DNA of 64,000 nt from Candidatus Aminicenantes bacterium (GCA_963702005.1 OY969696.1:768001-832000), one strand, 5' to 3'. Positions 1 through 17,751 are shown, counted from the stretch's first letter. Translations and numbers: made by a program. The notes: generated from the sequence alone by a model not told the origin.

Positions 1-63
1 GGGCGCATCGCAGAGTCGTCCGAGGGAGCGATCCGTGTCCGACTCCGGCCGGAGGGTTCTTAA
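1..63 (+). CDS. 3' end of an upstream gene (partial), possibly selenide,water dikinase SelD
   Basis: Frame 1 reads [20 protein letters not shown], resembling the 'IG.v....g.I.v' C-terminus of SelD/AIRS-fold proteins. It lies immediately before selB and selC. Only 20 codons are visible. Confidence 0.35.
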
Positions 64-74
64 GGGGAGAGGTC

Positions 75-1998
75 ATGGCCGGGCTCGACAAAGACCACGT
101 CATCTTCGGCACGGCCGGCCACATCGACCACGGCAAGAGCTCGCTGGTCAAGGCCCTGACCGGGACCGATCCCGACACGCTTCCTGAAGAAGAAGCTCCG
201 GGGGATGACGATCGAGCTCGGGTTCGTATTCCTGGACCTCCCCGACTACGAGAAGCAGATCGTCTTCATCGACGTCCCCGGCCACGAGCGGTTCGTCAAG
301 ACGATGGCGGCCGGGGCCTCGAACATCGACGCCGCCCTCCTGGTCATCGCCGCCGACGAGGGCGTATCGGTCCAAACCCGCGAGCACTTCGACATCCTCC
401 GTCTCCTCGACGTCCCGCTCGGGATGGTCGTCCTGACCAAGGCCGACCTGGTCGACGCGGACCGGATGGCCGAAGTCCGCGGCGACGTCGTCCGTTTCGT
501 CGCGGGCTCCTTCCTCGAGGGCGCTCCCCTTCTGGCCGTCTCGTCCGTGACCGGCGCCGGGATCCCCGAGCTCAAAGCGGCCCTGGTTGAGATGGGGCGG
601 AAAGTGCGGCGGCGGAGCGACACGGGCTTCTTCCGGATGCCGGTCGACCGCGTCTTCACCATCCAGGGCTTCGGCACGGTCGTGGCGGGAACGGTCCTGG
701 GCGGCGCGGTCGGCGTCGGCGACCGGATCGAGGTTTTTCCCGATCGGCTTCCGGCCCGGGTCCGGGGCGTTCAAGTCCACGGCCGCGGCGCCGAGCGGAG
801 CGGGATCGGGACACGGACGGCCCTCAACCTGATGGACGTCAAGAAGGAGGATCTGCGGCGGGGACAATGCGTCGCCGCGGCCGGCAGCCTGACGCCGACC
901 AACCGGCTCGACACGGAGCTTCTCTTGCTGGCCGACGCCGGCAAGGAGCTCAAGCACCGCGAGCGGGTCCGCCTCCACGTCGGGACGGACGAGGTCATCG
1001 CCCGAGTCGTCCTTCTCGACCGGGCCGCGGTCCAGCCGGGCGAGAAGGGCTTTGTCCAGTTCGTCCTAGAGGCGCCGACCGTGGCGCTTCCCGGCGACCG
1101 GTTCGTCATCCGGACCTTCTCGCCGCTGATGACGATCGGAGGAGGCCGGGTCCTCGACCCGACGCCGGGCCGGCACAAACGGTTCGACGATCAGGTCATC
1201 CAGGGGTTGGGCCGGCTCGAAGGGAGCCTCGACGAGGTCGTCGAACAGCTTTTAGTCAAGGCCCGTTTCGCGCCCCAATCTCTGAGCGAGCTGGAGTTGA
1301 GCCTGGGCGGCCGCGCCAAGGAGGTCAAGGAATCCGTCGCCGCGCTCGTCGCGGCGGGGAAGACCGTCGCCGTCCCGTTCGAGAAGGAGGAGCGCTACCT
1401 TCACGCCGGCGCCGCGGCCGAGCTCGCCGGGAGGCTCGTCGGACTCGTCAAGGACTACTTCGAGAAGTTCCCCCACAAGCTGTCGATGCCCCTCGGCGAC
1501 CTCCGCTCCCAGTTCCTGAAGCTGAGCGAGGCGGCCGTCTTCCGGAAACTCCTGGAGGAGCGGGCGGCCCAAGGCGCCTTGGACGCCCAGGGGACCGAGG
1601 TCCGCCTCCCCGAGCGCGGCGTTCGGATGACGGCCCGCGAGCAGGAACTGGCCCGCCGGATCGAGGAGGCCTATCTCAAGGCCGGCTACGACAGTCCGCT
1701 CGATGACGAGCTGTGCCGGACGTTGGGCGCCGAGCCGCCCCTGTTCGAGAAGGTCCTGTTCAGCCTCTACGACCAGAAAAAGCTGATCCGTCTCAACCCC
1801 AAGGTCACCTACCACGTCGATACGGTCGCCAGCATGAAGGCGCTCGTCCAGGAGCACCTCAAACGGAAAGGGGGCATCACGATCGCGGAGCTCCGGGATA
1901 CGATCAAGCTTTCGCGCAAGTACGCGCAGGCCGTCCTCGAGTATTTCGACCGGGTCGGGTTGACCCGGCGCGTCGAGGACCGCCATGTGCTAAAATAG
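75..1998 (+). CDS. selB: Selenocysteine-specific elongation factor SelB, with a +1 frameshift at ~186-195
   Basis: The ATG at 75 (RBS GGAGAGG) gives [19 protein letters not shown]. The frame from 205 gives [25 protein letters not shown] and a C-terminal winged-helix [13 protein letters not shown]. Deleting one A in GAAGAAGAAG restores [15 protein letters not shown]. Confidence 0.95.
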
Positions 1999-2010
1999 AC
2001 GACGACCCGC

Positions 2011-2106
2011 GGGAGGGTATAGGTTCCGGTGGGCCTTCTGGACTTCAAATCCAGCACGGGGCCGTGAAACGTCCCGGGTGGGTTCAACTCCCACACCTTC
2101 CCGCCA
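2011..2106 (+). tRNA. selC: tRNA-Sec (anticodon UCA)
   Basis: 8-bp acceptor stem GGGAGGGT/ACCTTCCC plus G-CCA; anticodon arm CTGGA-CTTCAAA-TCCAG; long variable arm; T arm GTGGG-TTCAACT-CCCAC; 96 nt long; 12 nt after the selB stop. Confidence 0.97.
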
Positions 2107-2134
2107 CAGCCTCTCTCAGGGGGTAGGGGGGAGC

Positions 2135-2539
2135 TCATCCGGCCAGAAAACGGGCCGGGGACAGGGCCGTGTCGGGGAAGCTCTTGAGGAGGGCCTTGTC
2201 CGTCGTGACCAGGCGGACGTCCAGTCCCCGGGCGAGCGCGACGAACTCGCAGTCGTAGGCGGAGCATTCCGATCCGGCCGCCAGGCTCAACACGTCGAAG
2301 GAATCCACGGCGAACTCGTTGCCCTTCATCAGGGACTCAGCTTCCTTCATAATCCGGGCCGCGTCATCCAGCCCGAAGAATCTCTTTCCGAGGCAGGCGG
2401 CCAGGACGCTCCGGAATTCGCTCCGCCATAGAGGGGGAGCCGCCCAGATCGGATCCTTGCGCAAAACCTTTTCGGCCGCGCCGCTGTGCTCCCCTTTGAT
2501 GAACAGATAGGCGACCAGGTTCGTGTCGACGGCGATCAC
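2135..2539 (-). CDS. vapC: PIN-domain toxin, VapC/FitB family
   Basis: N-terminal VDTN motif, W.SEF, SAYDCEFVALA and LVTTD (PIN acidic residues). It overlaps the antitoxin stop by 4 nt. Confidence 0.88.
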   Translation of the reverse strand: MIAVDTNLVAYLFIKGEHSGAAEKVLRKDPIWAAPPLWRSEFRSVLAACLGKRFFGLDDAARIMKEAESLMKGNEFAVDSFDVLSLAAGSECSAYDCEFVALARGLDVRLVTTDKALLKSFPDTALSPARFLAG

Positions 2540-2781
2540 GGGCGCCCCCGTCGCTTGGCCCGGTCGATAAAGTCTTGGTCCAGGACGCGGCCGGCGGTTT
2601 TATTCCTAAGGACCCGTGCTCTGGCCAGGACATCGTCCGGCTCCAGGCGGCGGGCGGTCAAGGTCTCCTCGAAGATCGAGAGGATTTCGCCGTTGATGCT
2701 CCGGCGGTTCCGACCCGCCCGGGCCCTGATCTTGTCGAACAGCTCCTGGGGGATATTCTTGACGGTGAAGTTCGCTGGCAT
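2536..2781 (-). CDS. Arc/ribbon-helix-helix antitoxin, FitA-like
   Basis: MPANFTVKNIPQELFDKIRARAGRNRRSINGEI is a typical RHH antitoxin sequence; GGAG RBS before the ATG at 2781. Confidence 0.85.
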   Translation of the reverse strand: MPANFTVKNIPQELFDKIRARAGRNRRSINGEILSIFEETLTARRLEPDDVLARARVLRNKTAGRVLDQDFIDRAKRRGRP

Positions 2782-2902
2782 CGCTCCGGACCGTTGGTTG
2801 TAATCTGGTTCCATTATGGTTCTTTCAAGACTAAAAGTCAATACGGATCTCCAGCGGTTGTCGATCTCCGGGAGATGTCCTCTTCAGGAATGACGCTTCG
2901 AG

Positions 2903-4264
2903 TCAGGGGGCCGTCTCGCCGCCAAGGTAGCTTCCGACGATCTCCCGCCCCGCCCGCATCAGCTCGTGGATCCAGGAGTAGGCGAAGCGGCCGCCGCGGC
3001 CGGCGAGCCTCAGGTTGCCGAACCGCCCCAAGTAGGAGAGGACGGTCTCGACGTTCTTCGCGCTCTCCCTCTCCAGGATGGGATAGGCATGAGAGAGCCG
3101 GCTGACCTCGGCGTCGATCGGATCGCCGCTTCCGAGCCAGCCGATATTGCGGAGGAGCGACGCCGTGCGCTCGACCAGGGACCCGTCCCCTGAATTCCAA
3201 ATTTCGTCCCCCCGCTGGCAGGGGATCTCGGCGACGAGCGAAGTCCTGCCGGCGGGCGCCATGCGCGCGCTCCGGTTCTTCGGTTCATAGACCCGCGTGA
3301 ACGGGAATTCTTTGTCCGGGAAATAAACGGTCGCCGCCTTCGTCACGGAATCGCAGCCGAGAAACAGGGCGACCAGGACGAGATCCCTGAAGCGCAAGAG
3401 AGAGGCGCTCCGCAGGACTCCGTCGGGCGGCCGGGGCGCCATCATCCGGATGAATTCGGGGAGCGGGAGGGAGCTTATAAACTCGTCGGCTTGGACGGTT
3501 GCGCCGCCCCCGGTTTCGACGGCCATAATCCGTACGCCGTCGTGGATGACCCGCGTCACGGGAGCGTTTGTCCGGATTCGCTCCTTTCCGCAGAATTCGA
3601 CCAGACGCTCGGCGAGGGCGCCGATACCCGGACGCGGATAATAAAAAGAGCCGTCGACGTGCTTGGTGCCCGCCTTCCGGCCCAGGAAGGCCTCGATCAG
3701 GACGGTGCCAAGGGTCAGCCCGTTCATGCGCCGGCCGGAGACCTCGGGAGACAGCTGCCGGCAGGGGACGCCCCAAAGCTTCTCGGAATAATTCAACAGG
3801 AAGCGCTCGCTGATCGTGTCGCCGTACTTGTTCCGGGCGAACGACTCGAAGTCGTCGCTCCGCCGGGCGGCTTTGAGCCGGCCGGACATGACCTGGACCC
3901 CGGATGAAAGGAAGGCCGCGGGACCCAGGCTCCTCATCAAGTTGAGCGGCAGGAAGGGGAAGTCGATCAGGATCCCCCGCCGGTAGATCTTGCTGGGGAC
4001 GTGGATCATTTCCAGCTCTCCGTCAAGCAGGGATCGAATCTCCGCCGTCGCTACGGGGTCCTTGTCGTGAATGCGGTGCGCCCCCGTGTCGTACAGGAAT
4101 TCCGTATGCTTCAGGGTCCGGGCGTTTCCCCCGCAGCGATCGCGGGCTTCGAGGACGATGAAGGGCAGTCCATTCTTCCTGGCGTAAAAGGCCGCCGACA
4201 GTCCGGCGACTCCGCCGCCCAAGATGGCGATCAGCCCCGGCCTTTGTCTCCGTCCGTCCTGCAT
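2903..4264 (-). CDS. FAD-dependent oxidoreductase (protoporphyrinogen oxidase/UDP-galactopyranose mutase-like, glycan-associated family)
   Basis: GGGVAGLSAA dinucleotide-binding motif, EARDRCGG, DTGAHRIH, YSEKLWG and C-terminal GRGGRFAY. Confidence 0.8.
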   Translation of the reverse strand: MQDGRRQRPGLIAILGGGVAGLSAAFYARKNGLPFIVLEARDRCGGNARTLKHTEFLYDTGAHRIHDKDPVATAEIRSLLDGELEMIHVPSKIYRRGILIDFPFLPLNLMRSLGPAAFLSSGVQVMSGRLKAARRSDDFESFARNKYGDTISERFLLNYSEKLWGVPCRQLSPEVSGRRMNGLTLGTVLIEAFLGRKAGTKHVDGSFYYPRPGIGALAERLVEFCGKERIRTNAPVTRVIHDGVRIMAVETGGGATVQADEFISSLPLPEFIRMMAPRPPDGVLRSASLLRFRDLVLVALFLGCDSVTKAATVYFPDKEFPFTRVYEPKNRSARMAPAGRTSLVAEIPCQRGDEIWNSGDGSLVERTASLLRNIGWLGSGDPIDAEVSRLSHAYPILERESAKNVETVLSYLGRFGNLRLAGRGGRFAYSWIHELMRAGREIVGSYLGGETAP

Positions 4265-4367
4265 TGTCGCCCCGCAGCTCCCTTGCTTGGGACGCCTTGC
4301 GCTCGTTCGTTTGACAATAGATGATAGACGGCCCGCGGCGAGTTGTCAAACGCGTCCCGGACTCAGC

Positions 4368-6833
4368 TTATCGTATGGTCACGGTCGCGGGCGGGCCCTC
4401 GCGGCCCGTTTCCGGATCGACCGCGACAAGCCGGTACGTGTAGGCCTTGGTCTTGTCCACGCCGCGCTCCCGATACTCGAATGTCGCCGCGTCGAGCGAA
4501 GCGACGAGGCGCGGCGTCGTCCCCTCGACCAGGTAGAGCCGGTAGGTCAGCCCGGCGTCGTTGGCAGGATTCCGCCGCCAGTTCAGGACGTTGACGTACT
4601 CGACGAAGAGGAGCGAGCGGTTTTCTTTCTTCGTGCCTTTGAAGTCGAGCGGTTCGTAGATGGTCCGCTGGAATTCGGCCCGGACGGCCAGGTCGCGGTC
4701 GACGGTGACGGTCAAGGGATTCGTCGTCCCCGATGCGTCTCCGCTCCAACCCATGAAATGATAGTTCGAGGCCGCCGTCGCCGTGATGGTCACTTGACTT
4801 CCCGGGCTATGTTTATAGGTTCCGGGAGCGGGCGTCGTCGTGCCGCCCGAGGTCGCGCTGATGACGAGGGCGTACTGGCCGCCCGGCCGGATTTGGCAGA
4901 GGCCTCCGCCCGGGGTCGCGGCGACGAGCGTGCCGGTCCCCTTGACGAAGTCGAGGGCGCTGACCGTTTTCACGATCAGGCCCAGGCTGTAATCGGACCA
5001 GGAACTCCCGAAATCCACGCTCTTCCGGACGCCGGCCCAGCCGCCCGCGTAAACCTGGTTGGGGAGGGCCGGATTGACCGCGATGGCCGTCGTCGAGGCG
5101 GTCAGGCAATGGGTCCAGGTCGCGCCGGAGTCCTCGCTGCGGAAGACGCCGTCGTCGGACGCGGCGTAAATACGGAAGGGCGAGACGGGATCGAGGACGA
5201 GGGCGGTGATGGGAGCCGAAAATACGTTGGTCCCCAGCCCCGTCCAGGTTTCGCCTCCGTCCGATGTCCGGCAAACCGAGCCCAGGCTGTTCTGAGTGCC
5301 TCCGACATAGATGATCTGCTCGTTCGTAGGATGCACCGCGATGGCGCAGACCATCCCGGGATCGGGCAGGAGCTTGGACGCCCAATTGGCCCCTCCATCC
5401 GTCGAGATATACAAGGTGACATTGCTGCCCGGCGGACTGCCTCCCGCGTAAAGATGATCGAAGTTCTGGGAATGAACGACCAGAACATCGAGCTGGCCCT
5501 GCTGCAACAGGCTCGTCCAGCTGTTGCCTCCATCTACAGACCTGTAGATGTAGTCTCCGGACCCTCAGCCCTGGCCGGGCGCGATCATATAAACGGTCCG
5601 GGGGTTGCCGGGATCGACGGCCGCGATATAACCCTGATCGTCGCAGCTGTAAAAATAGGGGAGGAGGGACCAGGTCCGGCCGAAGCTGTCGCTCCGATAG
5701 AATCCGCAGTTGGAAACATTGGCATAAAGGACGTTGGGGTAAGAGGCCGGTACATAGAAGGACGGGACCCGGCAGGCCCGAACCCCGGTTTGACTGGCCG
5801 CCCAGGTCGCGCCCGCGTCCGTGCTGCGGTAGACTCCGGCGTCCGAGCCGAAGAAAACCGAGCTTCCCGCCACGGCCATGCGGCGGCAGTCGCCGAGAAG
5901 ACCCGTTTCGGCGGACGTCCAGTCGATGCCGCCGTCCGTGCTCTTGTAGACCCTTTTCTGATAGCCGGCATAGAGGACGGAGGAATTCGCCGGGTCGATG
6001 GCCAGCCCGTAAGCGCAGCTGGTGTTGGCGCTGCTCTGCCAGGTCTGTCCCGAGTCCGAGGAGCGATAGACGCCCCCTTCGGTCGCGGCGAAGACCCGGG
6101 AGGGATTGTTCGGATCCGTTGCCAGGTCGTAGATCTGGGTTGAGAGCCCGCCCGTGATGTCTTGCCAGGAATCGCCGCCGTTCGTCGTCCGGTAGACGAA
6201 GAATTTAGCCGTCGTGGCGGTCCGGTAAATCCCGCTGACATAAATGACGGCCGGATTCCCGAAATTGACGCAGAGGCTGTGGCTCTCGGCGAGATCCGCG
6301 CCGGGCGAGATTCGCTTGGACGTCCAGGTTTGGCCGCCGTCCGTCGTGCGGGCTAATCCGACCGAGGCCGTCTCGGACGTTATCTGGCCGAGGATGAACA
6401 GGCTGTCGGGATCGCTGGGATGGGCGGCCAGCCGTTCGAAGCTGGTGAAGCCGCGCGGATTCGTGAGCTGCGTCCAGGACGAGCCGCCGTTTCGGGATTT
6501 GAAAAGGGAGAGCCAGCTCATGGCATAGAGGCCGCCGCTTCCCGGAGGGCCGAAGGCGAGGTCCGTGATGGGATCATTGAATAACCCGATCCTCTTCCAG
6601 GTTTTGCCTTCGTTCGCGCTCCGGTAGACCTGGGCCGGCGTCGAATCGAAGACGGCCATGAGATCGTTGGCGTTCGCGGGATTCACGGCCAGGTCGCGCA
6701 GGCCGCCGCCGTCGGGACCGATCGATTTCCAAGCGGGGTTGTCCGCCCCGGCCGGCCGCGGCCGGGTTGGAGCGGCGGGAGGGCCGAGGATGAGCGCGGC
6801 TATCAGGATCGAGAATCCAATTCCTTTTTTCAT
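4368..6833 (-). CDS. Putative secreted selenoprotein (821 aa, Sec423): BNR/Asp-box beta-propellers, InlB-B-like bacterial repeat and C-terminal FN3-like domain
   Basis: ORFs 5565-6833 and 4368-5507 are in the same frame, separated only by a TGA at 5567-5565. Read-through gives APGQG-U-GSGDYIYRSVDGGNSW, an intact Asp-box. A SECIS-like hairpin follows, and the N-terminus is a signal peptide (MKKGIGFSILIAALILG). Confidence 0.85.
5531..5550 (-). promoter_or_regulatory. Bacterial SECIS-like hairpin CAUCUACA-GGUC-UGUAGAUG
   Basis: Perfect 8-bp stem with a GGUC loop starting 23 nt after the in-frame UGA. The CAGGUCUG core matches the apical part of the E. coli fdhF SECIS. Confidence 0.85.
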
Positions 6834-6885
6834 AAAAACACCCTCCGCCTGGAATCAGCAGGGTCCGAATCTGATTCCCGATTAT

Positions 6886-6914
6886 TTTATATAGGAGGGC
6901 GGTCGGGGAGTCAA
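6886..6914 (-). promoter_or_regulatory. Putative sigma70 promoter of selenoprotein gene 1
   Basis: TTGACT-N17-TATAAA on the minus strand, ~50 nt upstream of the ATG. Confidence 0.5.
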
Positions 6915-7050
6915 CCTTTCGACACCCATAGCCGTTTCCGGCTTAGTATGAGTGCTGCAAGGCTGCTCCCCGGCCCCGGATTGATTTGTGGAAGCTTTTC
7001 TGGTAAACAAGGGAGACAGGAACCGACATCGCGGGAAGGAGGTAGGGCTC

Positions 7051-9033
7051 ATGCAGGCTTGGAAGCGCCGATTCCCGGCGGCCCTCATCAAGATCCTGAT
7101 CCTCGGCGCGCTCGCCTTTCTTTCGGTCAAGCCGGCCGCCGCCCAGAATCCGATCGACTTTACCCTCAAGGACGCGGACGGCAATGACGTCCACCTCCGC
7201 GACTTCCTGGGCAATAAGGTCGTCCTGGTCGATTTCTGGGCGACCTGGTGCGTCCCCTGCGTCAAGGAGCTGTCCCACTTCCAGCGCTTCTACGAGTCCT
7301 ATAAGGACAAGGGTTTGGTCGTCCTGGCCATTTCCGAGGACGGCCCCGAGACCGTGGCCATGGTCAAGCCCTTCCAGCGGCGCTACAAGTACACCTTCAC
7401 CATCCTCCTCGACTCCGAATCCAAGGTCCTGGCCCTCTACAACCCGAGGGTCGTCTTGCCCTACACGCTCCTCATCGGCCGCGACGGCCGGATCGCCAAG
7501 ATCCACCAGGGCTACAGCCTGGGCGACGAGAAAATGCTCGAGCAGGAGATCGTCGAGCTTCTCGAGCCCAAGGCGGAAGTCAAGGCGAGCCGGATGTCGC
7601 TGAGCGCCAGCGAATCCTTCCTGTACCGCCATTTCACCGACAAGGATTATGTCGACGACTCGCGCGAGGGCCGGCCCAACCAAATCCTCAACAAGTTCGA
7701 CCTGACCCTTAACGCGGGCGATCTCCTGGTCGGGATCAGGGCCGACGCGAACCTCGACTTCTCGCCGATGCGGCACGATTACAGCCTGGCCAAGCGGTTC
7801 GTCGAGTTCAACAAATGGAACTTCAGCCTGCGGGCCGGGGATTTCTATTACTCGGTGGGGCGGGGGCTCGCCTTCAGCCTGCTCAAGATCTTCGAGAAGG
7901 AGGGCCTCGAGTACATCATCGACACGACCATCGAGGGCGGGAAGCTCAGCTACGGCGGGAACAAGTTCGAAGCCTGGGGGGGCTGGGTCGAACGCGAGCG
8001 GACGTCGCGGGAGGCGCCGATCGTCCGGGACCTGGTCGGGGGGCTGAGCGTCGGGACCCGCGTCTTGAGCTTCGCCGACGTCAACCTCAACGTCGTCGGG
8101 GCGCGGCTCGAGCCGGGCTCCGCGTTGGGGAGCCGGAACGTCTCCATGGAAACCCTGACCTTCTCGGCGGCCAAGATCGGCAATTTCGCCAAGTTCTACG
8201 GCGAGGGCCTCCTCATCCAGAAGGAAAAATTCTATGTCCCGAACACGATCTACGGCCACGGCGTTTATCTCGAGTCGGGGCTGTTCTTCGGGAACCTGAC
8301 TCTTTTATTCGAGTTCAAGGATTACCAGGACCTCGACTTCGAATACAACCGGCCGCCCCTGCTTGAGAGCGAGCAGCTGGCCGTCGTCGCCAACCAGTTC
8401 GTGACCTCGGCCAAGGACTCGACCGGCGCCGCGATCCGGGCCGATTGGTATTTCCCGGGGGCCTCGACCCTTCTCTTTGCCAAGGGCAGCTGGATCGACG
8501 ACCTGCCCGGCCACTTTCCGCGGACGATCACCCATTTTTTCGGGGGCGTCGAGAAGAAGTTCAAGGAGACGGGCTGGCTGACCCTGATCGGCGGCTACCG
8601 AAACGAGCAGGCGAGCTCCCTGGTTTTTTACTATACGGCGGGCCGGACCTTCCATTGGCAGGGGAATCTCAGCTATCCCCTGACCAGGCGTCTGAGCCTC
8701 GAGCTCGACATCGAGGCCAAGGACTTCGACGGAACGGTCCCCTTCGGAGGGAGGTTTACCGATTATTTCGAACGGCGCTCGTACCTGTCCTTGAGCTACT
8801 CCCCCCGTCTCATCCTGACCGTCCTCTACGACCGGACGGACGACCCCGAGATCCTGGCCGTCAAGAACAAGAAGGATTGGTGGGGGACGCAGCTCGAGAT
8901 CAAACTATCCCACGCCAAGTCGATCCGGATCTTCTACGGGTCCAACAAGGGGGGCGTCAAGTGCGCGGGCGGCGTCTGCAAATTCTTCCCGCCCTTCGAA
9001 GGGTTGAGGATCGACGGCGTCCTTAGGTTCTGA
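7051..9033 (+). CDS. TlpA-type thioredoxin fused to a DUF6029-like outer-membrane barrel
   Basis: AGGAGG RBS before the ATG at 7051; signal peptide; DFWATWCVPC; C-terminal amphipathic beta-strands ending GGVKCAGGVCKFFPPFEGLRIDGVLRF with a terminal Phe. Confidence 0.8.
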   Translation: MQAWKRRFPAALIKILILGALAFLSVKPAAAQNPIDFTLKDADGNDVHLRDFLGNKVVLVDFWATWCVPCVKELSHFQRFYESYKDKGLVVLAISEDGPETVAMVKPFQRRYKYTFTILLDSESKVLALYNPRVVLPYTLLIGRDGRIAKIHQGYSLGDEKMLEQEIVELLEPKAEVKASRMSLSASESFLYRHFTDKDYVDDSREGRPNQILNKFDLTLNAGDLLVGIRADANLDFSPMRHDYSLAKRFVEFNKWNFSLRAGDFYYSVGRGLAFSLLKIFEKEGLEYIIDTTIEGGKLSYGGNKFEAWGGWVERERTSREAPIVRDLVGGLSVGTRVLSFADVNLNVVGARLEPGSALGSRNVSMETLTFSAAKIGNFAKFYGEGLLIQKEKFYVPNTIYGHGVYLESGLFFGNLTLLFEFKDYQDLDFEYNRPPLLESEQLAVVANQFVTSAKDSTGAAIRADWYFPGASTLLFAKGSWIDDLPGHFPRTITHFFGGVEKKFKETGWLTLIGGYRNEQASSLVFYYTAGRTFHWQGNLSYPLTRRLSLELDIEAKDFDGTVPFGGRFTDYFERRSYLSLSYSPRLILTVLYDRTDDPEILAVKNKKDWWGTQLEIKLSHAKSIRIFYGSNKGGVKCAGGVCKFFPPFEGLRIDGVLRF

Positions 9034-9111
9034 AGCCGGGAACGGGCCGGACGTTATCGCCTATCCGTTCCAGGGGGGATTTGAAAAAGTGACAAAGTGT
9101 AGGTTTGACCC

Positions 9112-9867
9112 TCACAAGTATTTTTGGATGATGTTATCGACCTCGGCTTTGATGTAACCCTCCCGCTTGTAGCGGATGGTCCGGTTCCGGTCCATGATGT
9201 GGGGGAGGGGGATCGAATTCCGCCGGAATTGATCATAGATGGCGTGGCTGTTGTCGTCCAGGACCGGGAAGGTCAGTTTATAAGTCTCGGACCAGGTCTT
9301 GGCGCTCCCCTCGATGACGCATAGGATGTACATGAATCCCTTGCCCTTGAGGCTCTGATAGAAGGACTCGGCCGTTTCGGCCTTCTCCCGGCAGGGGCCG
9401 CACCAGTCGGCCGAGAAATCGAGCAGGATGACCTTGCCGTGGTAGGCCGAGAGAGTCACGTCGGCGCCGTTCTGGTCCTTGGCAGTGAAATCGAGGGCGA
9501 TAGACCCTTCCTCGGTCCCGTAGGTCGCGGCCGAGGCCGTGAAGGCCAGGTCGCTCCGCGAAGCCGACCCGACCTCATAGTCGGAGGGGCTGAAGGCGTA
9601 GCCGAGCCGCGAAGGCGTGATGATGTACCCTCCGCCGGGAAGATCGCTGAAGCTGAACCGTCCGTCGCTTCCCGTCGTCGTGGACTTAGAGGCGTCCCAG
9701 GACAAGTAGACGTCGATACCGGGAAGGGCCTGGCCGCCCTGGCTGACGGGGCCGCTGAAGCTCAGCAGGGACCCCTCGGGCCCGGTCGTCGTGGAAGTCT
9801 TGCAGGCCCCCAAGGCCAGGAGCCCGATCGCGAGGGCGAGAATGGCGACCCGGTTCGTCCCGTTCAT
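9112..9867 (-). CDS. Lipoprotein: carboxypeptidase-regulatory-like domain plus TlpA/AhpC-TSA thioredoxin domain
   Basis: Lipobox LGAC; TGSDGRFSFSDLPGGGYII; DFSADWCGPC. Confidence 0.82.
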   Translation of the reverse strand: MNGTNRVAILALAIGLLALGACKTSTTTGPEGSLLSFSGPVSQGGQALPGIDVYLSWDASKSTTTGSDGRFSFSDLPGGGYIITPSRLGYAFSPSDYEVGSASRSDLAFTASAATYGTEEGSIALDFTAKDQNGADVTLSAYHGKVILLDFSADWCGPCREKAETAESFYQSLKGKGFMYILCVIEGSAKTWSETYKLTFPVLDDNSHAIYDQFRRNSIPLPHIMDRNRTIRYKREGYIKAEVDNIIQKYL

Positions 9868-10009
9868 GATGACTCTCCTTCGGGGACTTTCGCTCTCCAG
9901 TATAGGTCAAGCTTCCGGCTTGTCAACCCCTCAACACACACGAACCGTTCCCGGTTCGTGAGTACTGCAAGGCGGGCTTAACGTCGGCGAACGGGTCAAC
10001 CGGCCGTCC

Positions 10010-10903
10010 TCAGCCGGCTTTGTCCGGGGCCGGCGCGGAAGCGGCCGGAGCCCTGGCCCCCAGGAATTCGTATTGGATCGAGCCCATGGCGCAGGAGTCC
10101 ACGCATTTGAGGCAGCGGATGCAGTCCGGCGAATTGGGCCGCTTGTAGACCTCGATGTCCAGCGGGCAGGACCGGGCGCACTTGCCGCAGGAGGTGCAGG
10201 TTCCCTCGTCGATCGTCATCCGGAATACGGAGGCCTTGTTGAAAAGCCCGAAGATGGCGCCCAGTGGGCAGGCCGTCCGGCAGAACGGCCTCATGCTGAA
10301 GACCATCCAGATCAGGAACAGTACCAGGACGCCCATCTTCCACTTGAACATGAAGGCGAGCTGGGCCCTGATCCCGGCGTTGAGGGCCGCGAGGGGGATG
10401 CCGGCGATCAAGGTCCCGTCGGGGCAGATCCACTTGCAGAACCAGGTCTGGCCGTAGCCGAACTCGTCGACGAGGAGGAGGGGCAGCGCGAAGACGAACA
10501 GGACCGTGATGATGTAGCGGAGGTAGGTCAGGACGCGGGGGATACGGAGCTTGGGCGATGGAATTTTATGGACGAGCTCTTGGACGAGGCCGAACGGGCA
10601 GAGCCAGCCGCAGGGAATGCGGCCGACCAGGCTCCCCACGGCCCCTAAGATCCCGAGGACGTAGAAACCGAATTGGTGGACGGCGACCGAGAGGTTGAAG
10701 CGGAGGGCCCCCAGGAAGTTCTGAAGGGAGCCGACCGGGCAGGCCCCGATCGCGGACGGGCAGGAGTAGCAGTTGAGGACGGGCAGGCAGATCCCCTTGA
10801 TGCCGCCCTGGAAGATCTCGCCCTTGAGCCAGTTGGGGAGGTAGGCGTTGAAGCCCAGGACGGCGGCGGCTTGGACCCATTTCCGGGTGCGTTGTCTGGC
10901 CAT
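10010..10903 (-). CDS. Membrane 4Fe-4S binding protein (NapH/MauN-like polyferredoxin)
   Basis: CLPVLNCYSCP, CGWLCPFG, FCKWICP and FCRTACPLG motifs; ferredoxin motifs CTSCGKCARSCP and CIRCLKCVDSC; several TM helices. Confidence 0.88.
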   Translation of the reverse strand: MARQRTRKWVQAAAVLGFNAYLPNWLKGEIFQGGIKGICLPVLNCYSCPSAIGACPVGSLQNFLGALRFNLSVAVHQFGFYVLGILGAVGSLVGRIPCGWLCPFGLVQELVHKIPSPKLRIPRVLTYLRYIITVLFVFALPLLLVDEFGYGQTWFCKWICPDGTLIAGIPLAALNAGIRAQLAFMFKWKMGVLVLFLIWMVFSMRPFCRTACPLGAIFGLFNKASVFRMTIDEGTCTSCGKCARSCPLDIEVYKRPNSPDCIRCLKCVDSCAMGSIQYEFLGARAPAASAPAPDKAG

Positions 10904-10925
10904 GGTCGCGCTCCTCGGACGGGGC

Positions 10926-11060
10926 TCAGCCGATCCCGATGCAGTCCAGGCAGATCGTCACGGCCTTCTCCAGGACGGTCTGGAATTCGCCGAGCTTGAG
11001 GCCGATCAGGATCAGGACGACCGACGCCGCGAACAGGATCCAGGGCAGCTTCCGTTTCAT
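10926..11060 (-). CDS. Small membrane CxxC peptide, CD1871A-like (44 aa; not in ORF track)
   Basis: MKRKLPWILFAASVVLILIGLKLGEFQTVLEKAVTICLDCIGIG*. The ICLxCIGIG end and the position between a TlpA gene and a 4Fe-4S gene are characteristic. The ATG overlaps the TlpA stop. Confidence 0.85.
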   Translation of the reverse strand: MKRKLPWILFAASVVLILIGLKLGEFQTVLEKAVTICLDCIGIG

Positions 11061-11674
11061 TTACCGCTCCCCTTGACGAGAGCGCCGATGATCTCGTCAA
11101 GCTCCGTGATGTGCTCTTTTTTAAACCCGATATGGGCGTGACTGATGACGCCGGTTGCGTCGATGAGATAGACGACCGGAATTTCCTGGACCTTATAGCG
11201 GCCCGCCATGTCCTTGGTCGTCTGGATGACGTCGGCCGCGGCCGCCCGGTCGGGGGGATCGGCCAGCATCGGGTAGCTGATCTTGAGCTTCCCGTAGAAG
11301 GGCTTGACGACCCTGGACCCCTTCTGGTCGAGGGCGATTCCGAACAGTTGAAGGCCGCCCTCGGCCTGGCCGGGCTTGGGCTGATACTTTTCGTAGAGTT
11401 GCTGCATATAGGGCATGGCCGCCCGGCAGGGGACGCACCAGGTCGCCCAGAAGTCGACCAAAACGCCGGCCGGGTAGGTCTTGGCCTGTTCCGGCTTGCC
11501 GTTGACGACCTTCTCGGTCAGCAGGCAGAGCCGGCCGTTTTCGAGGAAGACGGTATAGGTGACGTCGTCGACGCCCTTGAGGCTGAAGGGAATGAGGCGA
11601 TCGCCTTTGGCCAGGATGCCGAATACGGCCGGGGCCATCGCCAGGACTAGGGCGAGGATGATGAGCCGCTTCAT
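11057..11674 (-). CDS. Periplasmic TlpA-family disulfide reductase
   Basis: Signal peptide; VDFWATWCVPC; cis-Pro loop QEIPVVYLID. Confidence 0.88.
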   Translation of the reverse strand: MKRLIILALVLAMAPAVFGILAKGDRLIPFSLKGVDDVTYTVFLENGRLCLLTEKVVNGKPEQAKTYPAGVLVDFWATWCVPCRAAMPYMQQLYEKYQPKPGQAEGGLQLFGIALDQKGSRVVKPFYGKLKISYPMLADPPDRAAAADVIQTTKDMAGRYKVQEIPVVYLIDATGVISHAHIGFKKEHITELDEIIGALVKGSGK

Positions 11675-12261
11675 GAAGGCTCCTTGGGGACGGGGGTTTG
11701 GGACCCGATATTGAAACCGATCCCCAAGGCGAGCTGGAAACCTCCGATATCGGCTTTGATGTCCTGTGGCTTGACCTTGCAGCGCGTGTAGCCGGCCTGG
11801 ACGTCGACGAGGACGCCGCCCGGGATCTCGAGAAAGGCCCCGGCCTTCAGGCCGACGCCGAGGCTCCCTTTTTCGACGACCCCGATGACGCTCTTTTCTT
11901 TATACTGGAAATAGCCCAGCCCGGCGCCGACGTAGGGGCGGATAAAGCCGGTCAGCGGGATCTGGTACTTGACGCCGGCCAGGATAGGAATGATCCGGAG
12001 CTTGGCCTCTTCCCCGGTCAGGGTCAGCGCTCCCGTTTTGCTGAAGTAATCGGCGCTCGCCCAGATGGCGAACCGGCCCGCCAGTCCGACCGTGACTTCG
12101 CCCCCCAAGCACAAGCCGCCGCCGTAGATGTCCTTGAAGGCGGTCTCGGTCGGCTGGAAATAGACGGCTTTGGCCTCGATGACGAAGGCGTTCGCCGCGG
12201 GGGCCGCGGCCAGGAACGCCAACCCCAGGCACATAAGCGTCGCCAGCGTTTTAATTTTCAT
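11671..12261 (-). CDS. Small outer-membrane beta-barrel protein (OmpW/OmpA-TM-like)
   Basis: Signal peptide; alternating beta-strands including RPYVGAGLGY and GGFQLALGIGFN. Confidence 0.75.
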   Translation of the reverse strand: MKIKTLATLMCLGLAFLAAAPAANAFVIEAKAVYFQPTETAFKDIYGGGLCLGGEVTVGLAGRFAIWASADYFSKTGALTLTGEEAKLRIIPILAGVKYQIPLTGFIRPYVGAGLGYFQYKEKSVIGVVEKGSLGVGLKAGAFLEIPGGVLVDVQAGYTRCKVKPQDIKADIGGFQLALGIGFNIGSQTPVPKEPS

Positions 12262-12278
12262 GGTTCCTCTCTCTTCCT

Positions 12279-14771
12279 TCAGCGGACCGTGATCGTAGCT
12301 TCCTGACCTTCGCGGCCCGTCTTATCGACGGCCAGGAGCGCGTAGGTATAGGTCTTGTCCTTTTCGACCCCGCGCTGCCGGAACTCGAGGATGGAAGAAT
12401 CGAGCTCGGCCAGGAAACGGCGCGTCCCCCCTTCGGCGAGGTAGATCCGGTAGGTTCGGATGTCGACGTTGGCGGGGTTGGCCCGCCAGCTCAGGACGTT
12501 GATGTATTCGGCCGAGATGACGCCGCGGTTGATTTTTTTGACGCCGGTCGCGTCGAGGGGCGGATAGATGCTTCGGATGAAACCGGCCGCCAAGGACTTA
12601 TCGGAGTCCATCAGGAGCGTCAGGGGATTAACCGTCCCGGTCGCGCTCCCCGTCCAGCCCGTGAACTCGAAGTTGGGTTCGGGGAGGGCCGTGACCGAGA
12701 CCGAGCTATTCATGTCGTAGGAATGATTCCCCGGCGCGGGATCGGTCGTCCCGCCCGTCGTCGCGCTGAGGCTGAGGACGAAGCGGCTCGACTGACGATA
12801 GCGGAAGACGCCGCCCCCGTTCGTCCCGACGAACAGGGTTTTGGTCGTGGGATTGACGCCCAGGGTGAGAACGTTCCGGACCGGCAGGGTGGCATTGAGG
12901 TCCGTCCAGTCCAGGCCGCGGTTCGCGCTGGCATAGACGCCGTCCGTGCCGGCGATGGTGATGGAAGAGGTCGCGACGGGATCGATATAAATGCAGGTCA
13001 CCGGAGTGTCGGCCAGTTTGGTCCAGGTCGCGCCGCCGTTCTCGCTCCTGAACAAGCCCCCGTTCGTGCCGGCGTAGATCGTCGCCGCAGCAGCCGGATC
13101 GACGGCCAGATCCTGGATCGGGTCGGCGAAAATTCCGGCGGCGAGTTTGGTCCAGCTCGTCCCCCCGTCGAGCGATTTATAGAGGGCGCCGGCCGAGTTG
13201 ACCGTGCCGCCCAGATAGACGGTCCTGTCGTTCGCCGGATCGATCGCGACGGCGAGCGCCGCCGCGGGGGTCGAACCGGCGACCGCGGAATCCGAGACCA
13301 AGTACGTGTCCCAGGTAGTCCCGGCGTCGAGGGTTTTATGCATCGCCATGACCTGAACCCCCGACACGCTCGTGTATCCGGCGATGAACAGGTGGTTGGG
13401 ATTGCGCTCGTTGAGAAGAAGGTCCTTAAAGCTCTTGGTCAACAAATGCTCCCAGCTCTTACCGCCGTCTACAGACCTGTAGACGTCATCCGCCCCTCAG
13501 CCTCCGGCCAGAATGTAGAGCTTGTCCGGATTGGTCGGAGTGACGACGATCCGCAGGACTTTGTCGCAGCGATAGAAGTCCGGCAAGCGCTGCCAGGAAG
13601 TTCCGCTGCTGAGGCTCCGGTAGAAGCCGTTGGCTTGGAACTCGATGTAGATGGTGCCGGCCGCGGAGGGGGCAACCCCCAAGGCCGGGATGAGGGACGC
13701 CTGGATGCCGGAATGGGAGGCTTCCCAGGTTTGCCCCCCGTCCGTGCTCTTATAAACGCCGCCCGTGGAGCCGAAGTAAATCGCCGAAGCCGTGATAACG
13801 ATGGCCCGGCCGGCTCCGTAAAGGCCGACGCCGAACTCCGTCCAGTTGACGCCGCCGTCCACGCTTTTATAGCACTTCTTATCGTACCCGGCGTAGAGGA
13901 CGTCCGGGTTGGCCGGGTCGACGGCCAGCGTGTAGCCGAAGGCGAAGCCCTCGTTCCTCTGCCAGGACCGTCCGCCGTCCGTGCTGCGGTAGATTCCCCA
14001 GCTCGTCGCCGCCCAGACCTTGTCCGGGTTCGTCGGGTGGACGGCCAGGGAGGTGACCAGGTCCGTGATCTCCGTCCCGATGATCGACCAGGACGTCCCT
14101 CCGTTCACCGACTTGTACATCCGATAGATGGCGGCGACCCCGGTCGTGAGCGAGCCGGCCAGGTAGAGGGTCGACGGGCTCGAGGGGGCGACGGCCAAAG
14201 CCGTCGCCGAGCCTGTGTCCGAGCTCGGGCTGAGCTTGACGGTCGTCCAGGTCCGGCCGCCGTCCGCGGTCTTGAAGAAAGCCATGCAGTTCTTCCCCGC
14301 TAAGGCGCCGTAGGCCCCCGTGGCGTAGACGATATTCGAGTTCGAGGGGTGGATGGCCAGCTTGCCGCCGACGGAGAAGCGGTTGGCGCCGAAGGCAAAT
14401 TCGGACCAGGACACGCCCTTGTCCTCCGATTTGAGGATGCCGGTATCGGTCAGGATGTAAGCGATGTTGGCGTCGCGATTGACGGCCAGGTCCAGGGCCG
14501 TACGCTCGAACGTCGCCCGGCGTGCCCAGCTCCGGCCTCCGCTTGTCGTCCAAAAGACCTGGCTGAACCCGGTGAGCCCGGAGAGGGCCAGAAGCTCGCT
14601 TTGTTTTGAGGGGTTCAGCGCGAGCGTCGTGATGCTCCCCCCTTCCGGTCCCAGCGCTTCCCAAGCGGCGGCCGCCGGCCGGAATCTCGGGGTGGATACC
14701 CTCTCCCCCGCGCCGAACGCGAGGCTGAAGAATACCGAGAGACCGATTCCGATGGCGCCGATCTTTCTCAT
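12279..14771 (-). CDS. Putative secreted selenoprotein paralog 2 (830 aa, Sec425): BNR beta-propellers, bacterial repeat and FN3-like domain
   Basis: ORFs 13497-14771 and 12279-13445 are in frame, separated only by a TGA at 13499-13497. Read-through gives LYILAGG-U-GADDVYRSVDGGKSW. It has the same hairpin as paralog 1 and a signal peptide (MRKIGAIGIGLSVFFSLAFGA). Confidence 0.85.
13466..13485 (-). promoter_or_regulatory. Bacterial SECIS-like hairpin CGUCUACA-GGUC-UGUAGACG
   Basis: Perfect 8-bp stem with the loop 20 nt after the UGA. It differs from copy 1 only by a compensatory A-U to G-C pair. Confidence 0.85.
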
Positions 14772-14810
14772 AGCTCTTTTCTCCTCAGGGGCCTCCCGCG
14801 AGTTGGACCT

Positions 14811-14839
14811 ATTATACAGAACCGGTTTCGGTCAAGCAA
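14811..14839 (-). promoter_or_regulatory. Putative sigma70 promoter of the selenoprotein-2/redox operon
   Basis: TTGCTT-N17-TATAAT on the minus strand, 40 nt upstream of the ATG. Confidence 0.55.
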
Positions 14840-14888
14840 CCGGGTTCGCCCCGTGCCCGTGCTGCCCGTTTCTATGACTTGTGTCCGC

Positions 14889-15290
14889 TTATTTCTTGAG
14901 CTTCGCGATGAACCCGGCGTCGATCCAGTAGATGTCCGAATCCCCGTTCCGGGGGGCCTTGAAGAGGTCGAGGAGCTTCCGGGTCGTGACGGGCCCGGAG
15001 GCGAAGTCGAGCGGCAGGGCCTTGGTCGAGGCGAAGAAAAAGTATTTCCCGTCAGGGGAGAGGGAGCAGGAGCTGGCCGAGGCCCCGGCGAAATTGATCT
15101 CCGGGCCGAGGTTGACGGGCTCGCTCCAGCGATCGTCGGCGCTCCGGAAGAAGATGTAATAGTTCGGGAGGCCGGGCGTCAGACTGTCCTTCCGGCCGTC
15201 GACGCAGGCGATGAGGAAGCCCTCGTCGCGCGAGACATAGGCGTTATAAATCGTCTCTTTTCTATTCACGGGAGCGGGCAGCGGTTCAGC
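14889..15290 (-). pseudogene. C-terminal fragment of a PD40 (TolB-like) repeat protein
   Basis: AEPLPAPVN, WSEPVNLGPEIN, LSPDGKYFFFAS and GDSDIYWIDA are PD40 motifs. The frame begins directly after a TAG, with no signal peptide or RBS. Confidence 0.6.
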
Positions 15291-15410: not shown

Positions 15411-17498
15411 TTATTTCTTGGGGTCGAATCTGACCAGGTAACTATCATAAGAGCCCTTGAGCATCTTTTGGAATGCGCGGATGGTCGGGAAATCCGGGCT
15501 GTTTGTTAGGCCCGCGACATAGATCTTGGAATCCGGGGTTACAAAGAGCGTACCTGCTTTGTCATAAAAGGACCCACCCAAGAAGGTTGAAAAAACGAGG
15601 CTTTGTCCGTCCGCGGAAAGAACCGACATGAATGAATCGGTGGTCCCGTTTTTCTTTTTTTGAACGGCGTTCTTGAGGGGGAAATCGGCACTCGTGGTAT
15701 CTCCGCCCAGATAGACCTGCCCTTTCCCATCCAGGGCGACACAATTGAGGAAATCGTGGCCCGATCCCCCAAAGTACGTGGAATAGACGAGACTCTGCCC
15801 ATCGGGCGCAAACTTGGTCACGAAACCGTCTATCCCTTTTCGGACGGTCCGGAAGGCCTTACATAAAGGAAAGCGGCCGTTGGTAAAGCCGCTGATCACG
15901 AGGGCGCCGGAGTCGTCTACTGCGATTCCGGTGGGAGAGTCATAGCTCGAGCTTCCCAAATAAGTGGAATAGACAAGCCGCCGACCGTCCGATGCGAGCT
16001 TGGCGACGAAAACGTCATACATCCCTCCGAAGAGCTTCTGGAACGCATTTTTAACCGGGAAATTCACGCTGAACGTCGTCCCGACGATATAGGCCGCGCC
16101 GGCCCTATCGACTGCGATCCTTTCCGGCCGGTCATAATTTGAGCCCCCGAGATAGGTCGAATAGACGAGCGTTCGGCCATCCGGGGAGAATTTGGTAATG
16201 AAGACATCATCCATTCCTGCGAGTCGGCCTTGGATGGGATGGTACAATCGGAGGTTCTTGCTCGCCGTACATCCCGAAATGACGGGCGAGCCATTCGGGT
16301 CCAGGCCGATGGCGTTGATATAGTCATAGTCGGAACCTCCGAAGTAGCTGGAAAAAACCAGGCTCCGGCCGTTCGGAGCAAGCTTGGTGATGAATCCATC
16401 GTAGTCCCCACCCCCGAATTTTTCCTGAAAAGCGTTCTTGATTGGAAATTTGTTATTGGCGGTATAGCCGACAATAGTGGCGGCCCCCGACTCATCGACG
16501 GCCAGATCTAAAGGGGAACCACTGACCAAGGGAAAGAAGGCCGAATAGACAAGCGATTGACCGTCGCTAGCCATCTTGAGAACAAAGGCATCCCATCGCG
16601 CGATGTATAAAGATATGGAGTTCCCAGTGGCGACGGGAAAATCGGGGCTGAAAGTCTGACCGGTTAAGAAGACCTCTCCCGACGGGGCTGCGGCAATAGC
16701 GGTTGTGTAGTCATAGTCCTTCCCTCCGAAATAAGTGGAATAGCCGATGGTGTAGGGGTCGATGAAAAGGTCCCGGGAACGGTCATGGGGACCGACCTTT
16801 ATTCCGAATTCGTTGCGGGCGATCTCTCTGAATCCGGCCTCAACCCTGATCCGCCGGCCGGAATCTTCCTGATAGGCCGAGGGTCTTCGGTGCTCAGCTG
16901 CGCCGCGCGATGTCTCGATGACAAGATTTCCCTCGCCATCGATGATCGTCTTGTCGGCTCCCTCGAACACCATCCGGATCCGACCGGGGTCTCCTCCGGG
17001 CTTTACGATCCAGTCGTATTCGACCTCCTGTTCGGCGCTGTAGATTTTAAGGTCGATGCGGTCATAGATTTCTTTGTACAGGACGGCCGAGGAAGTCGGC
17101 AGGCCCGTTATCCAATCGGCGGGCTGGCTGCCGTTGAAATAACTAACCGTATAGTCGGCGGGGTTGAGCGCCATGATCTTGCACTTCGGAGAAAGCCCTT
17201 TGAAAATAAGCCGCGTCACTTCGCGCGTGCGGGCCGTTCCGTCCCCGGGCCCGGGTTTCAGGCTATCGAAGATCAAACCTTCCCGGGTCAACCATAGGGT
17301 CGTCCGACCCAAATTGGCATAGAAGAGGGCGCGGCCGTCCTCTTGACCTCGGTTGGCAATAAAATAGAGCGGGATCTTCGGCATCCCCGGGGCCGGGGTT
17401 TGAAAAGAATCAGCCCCTGCCGCCGGGATGGTCAGGCTCATCCCCAGATCGGTCACTGCCCAGATTACGAACAAGACAAGCCAAGCACCCTTTTTCAT
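15411..17498 (-). CDS. Secreted SBBP (beta-propeller) repeat protein
   Basis: PLYFIANRGQ N-terminal domain and repeated YSTY(F/L)GGS..D....IAVD..G..Y..G.T.S..FP units. Confidence 0.85.
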   Translation of the reverse strand: MKKGAWLVLFVIWAVTDLGMSLTIPAAGADSFQTPAPGMPKIPLYFIANRGQEDGRALFYANLGRTTLWLTREGLIFDSLKPGPGDGTARTREVTRLIFKGLSPKCKIMALNPADYTVSYFNGSQPADWITGLPTSSAVLYKEIYDRIDLKIYSAEQEVEYDWIVKPGGDPGRIRMVFEGADKTIIDGEGNLVIETSRGAAEHRRPSAYQEDSGRRIRVEAGFREIARNEFGIKVGPHDRSRDLFIDPYTIGYSTYFGGKDYDYTTAIAAAPSGEVFLTGQTFSPDFPVATGNSISLYIARWDAFVLKMASDGQSLVYSAFFPLVSGSPLDLAVDESGAATIVGYTANNKFPIKNAFQEKFGGGDYDGFITKLAPNGRSLVFSSYFGGSDYDYINAIGLDPNGSPVISGCTASKNLRLYHPIQGRLAGMDDVFITKFSPDGRTLVYSTYLGGSNYDRPERIAVDRAGAAYIVGTTFSVNFPVKNAFQKLFGGMYDVFVAKLASDGRRLVYSTYLGSSSYDSPTGIAVDDSGALVISGFTNGRFPLCKAFRTVRKGIDGFVTKFAPDGQSLVYSTYFGGSGHDFLNCVALDGKGQVYLGGDTTSADFPLKNAVQKKKNGTTDSFMSVLSADGQSLVFSTFLGGSFYDKAGTLFVTPDSKIYVAGLTNSPDFPTIRAFQKMLKGSYDSYLVRFDPKK

Positions 17499-17751
17499 GA
17501 ATCCCTCCCTTTATTAAAGACATTTGTTTTTTTCGCGGCGTGGTGAATCGCCGCTCCGAGCGCCGAACCTCCCCTCCTGATCACGTAAGAATAGTACTTC
17601 CGGCCGCTCGGCGAAGTCAACCCACGGACATCCCAGCTTTCCCTTTATTCGTGCCTAAGGCTATACACCATTTTCTTTTTCGCCCGGGAGGAGAGGTGTG
17701 TCGGATTTCCTGTAACATCGACAAGAAGGGAGCGGAAATGCAACAGGTTTT

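Follow-up and report, generated by a model that had tools for sequence, protein, structure and literature searches.

A probable selenocysteine insertion element written into one Asp-box of predicted exported double beta-propeller proteins from Candidatus Aminicenantes

Two paralogous genes on the minus strand of a 64,000-nucleotide (nt) stretch of DNA from Candidatus Aminicenantes bacterium (GCA_963702005.1 OY969696.1:768001-832000; hereafter, the window) encode Asp-box beta-propeller proteins and are each interrupted by an in-frame TGA, shortly downstream of which one Asp-box is written in bases that fold into a hairpin. This hairpin is very likely a bacterial selenocysteine insertion sequence (SECIS) of known kind, and it marks what appears to be an uncatalogued variant of selenoprotein. 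The reading that we favour overall, i.e., a SECIS together with a family of exported double propellers that bear selenocysteine (Sec), is highly probable, and the part of it in which we place the greatest confidence, judging from sequence, is that Sec would be inserted at the internal UGA. In the proposed mechanism, SelB would bind the hairpin, and the upstream in-frame UGA would consequently be read as Sec. The codon positions that the Asp-box (Y-R-S-x-D) leaves free would have been fixed such that the same bases fold into an 8-base-pair (bp) stem with a GGUC loop; thus, one of approximately 13 Asp-boxes would do double duty as a protein repeat and an RNA signal. The features concerned are as follows.

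4368..6833, minus strand: gene 1, Asp-box beta-propeller protein of 821 residues; predicted Sec is residue 423
5643..5645, minus strand: TGC codon of Cys397 in gene 1, predicted from sequence and alignment to be the partner of Sec423
5565-5567, minus strand: in-frame TGA of gene 1, codon 423, in a G-U-G context
5531-5550, minus strand: putative SECIS hairpin 1, DNA CATCTACA-GGTC-TGTAGATG, RNA CAUCUACA-GGUC-UGUAGAUG, with an A-U outer pair
12279..14771, minus strand: gene 2, paralogue of gene 1, 830 residues; predicted Sec is residue 425
13566..13568, minus strand: TGC codon of Cys402 in gene 2, predicted from sequence and alignment to be the partner of Sec425
13497-13499, minus strand: in-frame TGA of gene 2, codon 425, in a GG-U-G context
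13466-13485, minus strand: putative SECIS hairpin 2, DNA CGTCTACA-GGTC-TGTAGACG, RNA CGUCUACA-GGUC-UGUAGACG, with a G-C outer pair

Reading frames are open on both sides of the TGA in both genes. When this codon is read as Sec, two pairs of open reading frames fuse into genes of 821 and 830 residues (U423 and U425), and each product has a hydrophobic N-terminus, 12-13 Asp-boxes and a C-terminal Flg_new_2 domain. An earlier note on this DNA had ascribed the hairpin to both genes, with a loop 20-23 nt after the UGA and an outer pair that is A-U in the first copy and G-C in the second, and in these respects it proved accurate. The 16-mer TCTACAGGTCTGTAGA is found exactly at 5533-5548 and 13468-13483 (minus strand), compared with a mean of 0.15 matches in shuffled sequences, even with three mismatches allowed. 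Both copies are computed to fold into the 8-bp stem with a 4-nt GGUC loop; 22 nt (gene 1) and 19 nt (gene 2) separate the TGA from the loop, which begins at +23 and +20, respectively, and the minimum free energies (MFE) of the 48-nt segments are -12.5 and -13.5. The hairpin codons read (Y)IYRSVD(G) in gene 1 and (D)VYRSVD(G) in gene 2, and YRSVD is indeed encoded as TAC AGG TCT GTA GAY, as the note had stated. The shares of AGG, TCT and GTA in the codon usage of the genome are 0.11, 0.06 and 0.04, the product of shares for TAC AGG TCT GTA is approximately 1.7e-4, and AGG TCT is absent from the 23 other Asp-boxes listed for these two genes. The note's description of these codons as rare and AT-ending does not suit AGG, which is rare but not AT-ending; likewise, its view of the other Asp-boxes as GC-rich applies to some of them (TAC CGC AGC ACG GAC), whereas others use AAG/AAA and TCG.

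The genome scan that the note had proposed covered 4.31 Mb and linked every exact copy of the 16-mer to a TGA: all ten are preceded by a TGA at a distance of 19 or 22 nt, and all ten belong to the propeller family. When the shorter core CAGGTCTG is considered (113 sites in the genome), a stem of at least 8 bp is formed at 13 sites, 12 of which have a TGA at the same 19 or 22 nt. In total, the genome contains 14 TGA paralogues, clustered in tandem, with the TGA at the same G-U position and with GGUC loops in 12 cases and GUUC loops in two. At the protein level, ten out of ten YRSVDxG motifs found in six frames adjoin a TGA. For the broader pattern [YF]RSx[DN]xG, AGG-TCT is used in 11 of the 15 motifs with a TGA within eight codons vs. 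2 of the 94 without, and the remaining four TGA-near motifs look non-coding. The possibility that the hairpin is equally common at Asp-boxes lacking an upstream TGA, which would have spoken against its role, is contradicted by the ten TGA-linked 16-mers and by 71 Asp-boxes without TGA, where the same register gives 0 bp in 59 cases, 1 bp in seven and 2 bp in five. Moreover, the motif was found at none of the 12 non-TGA homologous sites whose DNA was inspected, and the hairpin is not present in the intergenic DNA of the genome.

The claim that selection acts on the RNA structure is supported by this specificity for TGA, by conservation in homologues and by covariation of the outer pair. Among the 14 paralogues, 99% of the cells in the stem alignment pair, and two pairs have changed on both sides, from G-C to A-U three times and from A-U to U-A once, the latter double change turning YRSVD into FRSED. 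In a set of 93 distinct sites, the outer pair is occupied by G-C 67 times, by A-U 25 times and by A-C once; control Asp-boxes have, at the same positions, G/C in 27 cases, A/C in 17, G/T in seven and A/T in none. When those sites with enough flanking sequence (78 of the 93) were placed on a tree with FastTree, the outer pair changed 7-8 times, at least three of them on well-supported branches, and the A-U hairpin of gene 1 was nested among six G-C orthologues. A U-G wobble is tolerated in the stem. Flanking codons diverge while the stem covaries, and non-synonymous I/V and Y/F-V/E changes follow base pairing.

The hairpin extends beyond this genome. A metagenome probe that contained no TGA but fixed the inner stem, leaving only the TGA and the outer pair free, gave 81 matches in 74 distinct contexts, of which 69 lie in a propeller with an in-frame TGA 5-7 codons upstream, the hairpin always being on the coding strand. 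The other five comprise one non-coding context with a TGA at 9 and four contexts without TGA (two non-coding and two ordinary Asp-boxes). Matches in the genome collection include eight TGA members out of ten (seven from Aminicenantes and one from Zixibacteria). When 246 genomes of the order were searched with profiles, full-length relatives emerged in 13, seven of which, from four families, have TGA at the site; one further TGA member occurs in a second class of the phylum. A looser pattern applied to 401 genomes of the phylum returned mostly chance single matches, and one of the 19 loci examined outside the genome itself (G297) is a true member. All nine TGA-bearing genomes have selA, several selA- or selB-positive genomes hold non-TGA relatives only, and selB is over the cut-off in 17 of 41 relatives. 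The TGA column is the same among proteins that are 30-46% identical in that region. Thus, failure of conservation in TGA-containing homologues, which would also have counted against the hairpin, was not what was found: it is kept in four families of the order, in the second class and in Zixibacteria. As a lineage-wide probe for hidden selenoproteins, a use that the note had envisaged, the exact motif disappoints, as it recovers the propeller family only. The Zixibacteria member (GGP-U-GADIVYRSVDGG) has an identical SECIS and a different C-terminal domain, and it may have been acquired by transfer.

Being a perfect inverted repeat around 4 nt of spacer, the 16-mer might act at the DNA level, as an operator or a recombination site, its link with TGA being incidental. 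There is hardly any probability left for this explanation when the hairpin always lies on the coding strand, 5-7 codons from an in-frame TGA, tolerates U-G wobble and is missing between genes. A second alternative is that the UGA is a real stop in split genes or pseudogenes that share the hairpin by descent or gene conversion. Gene callers cut such propeller genes into two halves, and databases hold these halves as separate proteins that end or begin at the TGA break, several entries ending exactly before the TGA; the paralogues lie in tandem clusters, and the assembly has other frameshifts (in selB, and in three paralogues that are split across frames). However, the TGA column remains constant at 30-46% identity, in four families as well as in a second class and in Zixibacteria. 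In addition, the break would cut a predicted 14-blade fold within blade 9, both halves of the protein are conserved, and the flanking codons diverge around a covarying stem, which makes true termination extremely unlikely. Contigs from public sequencing runs span the first TGA in three runs and the second in one, and no inference is drawn from them.

In its geometry, the hairpin agrees with the bacterial SECIS (bSECIS) model, which, in PMC13188914, comprises an apical loop of 3-9 nt on a stem of 4-16 bp, a G among the first two nucleotides of the loop (most often GG or GU), 16-37 nt from UGA to loop and an MFE of at most -7.5 kcal/mol. All four features are found here (4-nt loop on 8-bp stem, G-first loop, 19-22 nt, MFE). 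Similarly, PMC4605307 describes a SECIS as a 6-8-bp stem with a conserved G approximately 20 nt after the UGA. The loop is GGUC in 91 of the 93 sites and GUUC in two, although most of these sites, but not the 14 paralogues of the genome, had been retrieved with a GGUC probe. In contrast to the consensus bSECIS, the propeller element hardly varies throughout a large protein family, since it falls on a structural Asp-box repeat. An Rfam search of window positions 1-15000 matched no SECIS family and returned tRNA-Sec only. The E. coli fdhF SECIS has an identical CA-GGUC-UG apex and the same core CAGGTCTG, 18 nt after TGA140 vs. 19/22 nt here. The resemblance noted earlier therefore stands, as does the absence of the bulged U, which the computed fdhF fold has below its apical stem and which is required in E. 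coli; the fdhF fold also has a long lower stem that is absent here. As a sign of kinship, however, the resemblance should be read differently. The proteins are unrelated, and the 8-mer is read A-G-L in fdhF and Y-R-S-V here; because it stands in a different reading frame, the identity of the apex, as a matter of sequence, most likely reflects convergence on what SelB binds. A word search of PMC10778597 returned nothing on a U bulge.

Hairpins located 3' of a stop codon can stimulate read-through in other systems, and the UGA might accordingly be read as Trp, Gly or Cys, through an alternative code or a leaky stop, with the hairpin as a general stimulator. This is very unlikely here: the only tRNA with a UCA anticodon among the 53 tRNA genes found is tRNA-Sec, TGA serves as an ordinary stop elsewhere, including at the real end of gene 2, homologues carry Cys rather than Trp at the site, and both the presence of selA in every TGA genome and the bSECIS geometry point to Sec.

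An AlphaFold2 model was made of the propeller part of gene 2, with Cys in place of Sec and an alignment of 18 sequences. The model has a mean predicted local distance difference test score (pLDDT) of 92.6, is nearly all beta, and predicts a double 7-bladed propeller with U391 between strands 2 and 3 of blade 9 and C368 before strand 1 of the same blade. Counting the strands would thus place Sec on loop 2-3 of this blade, and the upstream Cys on the 4-1 loop before it. In propellers, loop 4-1 is on the same face as loop 2-3. According to PMC2716378, it is loop 2-3 that forms the functional loop on the top face in Asp-box propellers.

The best match to this fold is provided by the GH74 xyloglucanases, which are tandem 7-bladed Asp-box propellers without Sec (Foldseek expectation value 3e-27, template modelling score up to ~0.7), and these are also the best sequence match, at only 16-19% identity. 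In GH74 enzymes, each propeller carries its catalytic Asp in loop 2-3 of its first blade. In the profile alignment, the Sec loop corresponds to the GH74 loop located one blade further on than the ARTDIGG motif, and the Asp of ARTDIGG/ASDMEG is kept neither at matching positions (alignments to 6p2n and 6p2k, the second of which is weak) nor among the conserved columns. Both window proteins pass the whole-protein cut-off of NCBIfam NF045728 ('F510_1955 family glycosylhydrolase'), a family whose name does not mention Sec and for which the score is made up of five repeat stretches on a 246-position model. The NCBIfam selenoprotein models gave no match to the window proteins, and the 119 prokaryotic selenoprotein families in Table 1 of PMC13188914 include no propeller/BNR family. 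No propeller selenoprotein turned up when the main texts of PMC13188914, PMC13326102 and PMC12013277 were searched by word, and the BSepDB supplement (~4.0 million characters, possibly incomplete) gave no match. The literature searched, which leaves most subscription journals out of scope, contains no description of such a family.

A Cys residue near Sec is found in 84 of 87 sites, either 20-28 residues upstream (56 sites), 20-31 residues downstream (20) or on both sides (8), and the upstream Cys is present in 9 of the 14 TGA paralogues vs. none of the 17 other aligned rows. Sec would likely pair with this neighbouring Cys as a selenenyl-sulfide. In the nearest non-TGA paralogue, both positions are occupied by Ser and the hairpin is missing, and another paralogue (L020) has TGC at the Sec site, again with no hairpin. 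Five full-length relatives (P0013, P0028, P0042, P0049 and P0059) have Cys at the Sec site, and the residues seen there among full-length relatives from databases are Cys, Ser, Asn, Gly and Thr. In the mechanism considered here, Sec would sit on a variable top-face loop equivalent to the cleft loop of GH74, and its selenenyl-sulfide with the Cys of the neighbouring 4-1 loop would form a redox-active centre or switch in the binding cleft. For such a redox role of the Se-S bond, we would put the chances slightly above even.

It is possible, though rather less probable, that Sec is inserted and the Se-S bond is structural, stapling the blades in an anoxic periplasm, or that Sec binds a metal. Several other partly conserved Cys residues in the propeller proteins resemble ordinary disulfides, and the many full-length relatives with Ser, Asn or Gly at the site imply that Sec is required neither for the fold nor for the role of those relatives. 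On the other hand, Sec is fixed at one loop over 93 sites, where a GH74 cleft loop lies, and the surrounding gene cluster, which is linked to selABC in three families, abounds in TlpA/CXXC redox genes. As this alternative touches the role of Sec only, the SECIS reading is unaffected by it.

Several results weigh against the reading of a SECIS and a Sec-bearing propeller with a redox pair. The stability of 48-71-nt segments is not better than that of shuffled sequences (z -0.5 to -1.35), and the case for a SECIS therefore rests on conservation, position and covariation rather than on folding energy. Regarding covariation, FastTree gave long-branch warnings and the tree kept the I/V column; an independent-pairs test found only three supported pairs, nearly always concordant (p=0.25, underpowered). 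An A-C mismatch occurs at the closing or outer pair in three members, and two members have the GUUC loop; the fixed inner stem of the metagenome probe also belongs here. One non-TGA homologue (L042; G016:C11, ~1150900) has a 5-bp hairpin, CCUG-AGGUCG-CAGG, at the same Asp-box, possibly a remnant left when Sec was lost; its upstream Cys is kept, and the gene looks frameshifted. With respect to the Cys partner, an independent-pairs test of exchange between upstream and downstream Cys gave no support (p=1), and, among full-length relatives, the loss of Sec goes together only loosely with that of the upstream Cys. Finally, selB itself is frameshifted in this assembly by one extra base near position 190. 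Because a contig from run X1 lacks that base and the selB frame of a same-genus genome is open over model positions 1-210, this frameshift is likely an assembly error, as far as sequence can indicate.

The remaining features around the two genes comprise the Sec machinery and a set of putative redox and membrane proteins.

75..1998, plus strand: selB, over the TIGR00475 cut-off, with a one-base frameshift near 190, in a GAA run
2011..2106, plus strand: tRNA-Sec gene (selC), anticodon UCA
7051..9033, plus strand: TlpA-like thioredoxin (WCVPC) with a DUF6029-like part fused at its C-terminus
9112..9867, minus strand: carboxypeptidase-regulatory-like domain and TlpA-like thioredoxin (WCGPC)
10010..10903, minus strand: NapH/MauN-like membrane 4Fe-4S protein, below the family cut-off
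10926..11060, minus strand: small CXXC protein of the CD1871A family, over the cut-off
11057..11674, minus strand: TlpA-like thioredoxin (WCVPC)
11671..12261, minus strand: outer-membrane beta-barrel protein, which adjoins the propeller gene in three families

With selA and selD immediately upstream of the window, the host has selA, selB, selC and selD. The C-terminal WH4 domain encoded by selB aligns with solved SECIS-binding SelB structures, and SelD (G000:C1:767020) is the Cys form. A propeller gene lies within ~10 kb of selA in three families, and the gene for the TlpA-DUF6029 protein is likewise linked with the propeller gene and selA/B/C in three families. One genome (G001) retains the entire cluster, and in two other families (G147 and G058), the propeller gene, the barrel gene and the TlpA-DUF6029 gene stand beside selA/selB/selC. 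This arrangement supports the view of the cluster as a putative exported redox module, in which the TlpA-type thioredoxins and the membrane 4Fe-4S protein would keep the Se-S bond in a working state.

Some further observations concern the same region. Directly upstream of selA-selD-selB-selC lie four more tandem TGA propeller genes (G000:C1:755000-768500), in which Ser replaces the upstream Cys and a downstream Cys is present instead. The TlpA-DUF6029 protein ends in a KCAGGVCKFF motif. Similar intergenic stretches with ATGAGTGCTGCAAGG / GTGAGTACTGCAAGG flank the TlpA genes at 6940-6975 and 9950-9985, with contigs showing joints between them, and are possibly a short repeated element. Right after selC, a PIN-domain-like reading frame and a small upstream one (2135-2841) are toxin-antitoxin-like by sequence appearance only. 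A flavin adenine dinucleotide-dependent oxidoreductase (2903-4264; PRK07208-like, below cut-off) lies downstream of gene 1, and an SBBP-repeat-like propeller gene with an ABC-type cobalamin/iron transporter-like set (BtuC/F/D-like by appearance) occupies 15411-20440.

The propellers are not the only selenoprotein candidates of this lineage. A structural scan of the genome revealed two exported thioredoxin-TPR proteins with G-U-G-S-C (L017:1350-3059, plus strand, and L018:1070-2593, minus strand), members of a family found in 97 of the 246 genomes of the order, with TGA in all 150 matches listed. Their hairpin, ACUGCUG-GNY-CAGCAGU, is located at +18 and has its own compensatory changes (31 sites). 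Like the propellers, these G-U-x-x-C candidates have a hydrophobic N-terminus, an in-frame TGA, an unbroken stem of 7-9 bp and a G-first loop; unlike them, they have another hairpin sequence, a classical redox fold and a much wider spread. The two elements thus share a common grammar, i.e., an unbroken stem and a G-first loop at +18 to +22. An in-frame stop was not found in this genome in molybdopterin enzymes, MvhD, HdrA, NiFe hydrogenase fragments or nine AhpC/TSA matches. As SelD is the Cys form and the molybdopterin matches have no in-frame stop, there is no selD or fdh SECIS here for the comparison that the note had suggested. A gene for an outer-membrane protein ending in GG-TGA-TGC-GGC-TGA before a hairpin (G000:C1:1640642) was rejected as a selenoprotein, given that its homologues stop there with mixed ordinary stops.

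Altogether, the candidate selenoprotein genes of this genome number at least 16, and all 16 look exported, whereas the usual, cytoplasmic families that were checked have no in-frame stop; this would be an uncommon way to use selenium. According to PMC13188914, a thioredoxin-like fold is shared by most prokaryotic selenoproteins that have been characterised. A propeller family whose members have a signal-peptide-like N-terminus and number 14 in a single genome falls outside the 119 catalogued families. It also offers a clean natural case of dual coding, in which approximately 13 repeats per gene include one that carries an RNA signal and others that act as built-in controls. Tentatively, and with somewhat less than even odds in our judgement, the Sec machinery may be kept in these bacteria chiefly for exported proteins. 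A GH74-like double-propeller ancestor would have lost its glycosidase Asp residues, gained a selenenyl-sulfide in the cleft and derived a SECIS from one Asp-box. Its descendants, 14 copies served by a TlpA/4Fe-4S/outer-membrane module beside selABCD, may be the first exported beta-propeller selenoenzymes or redox-gated receptors that are not built on the thioredoxin fold.

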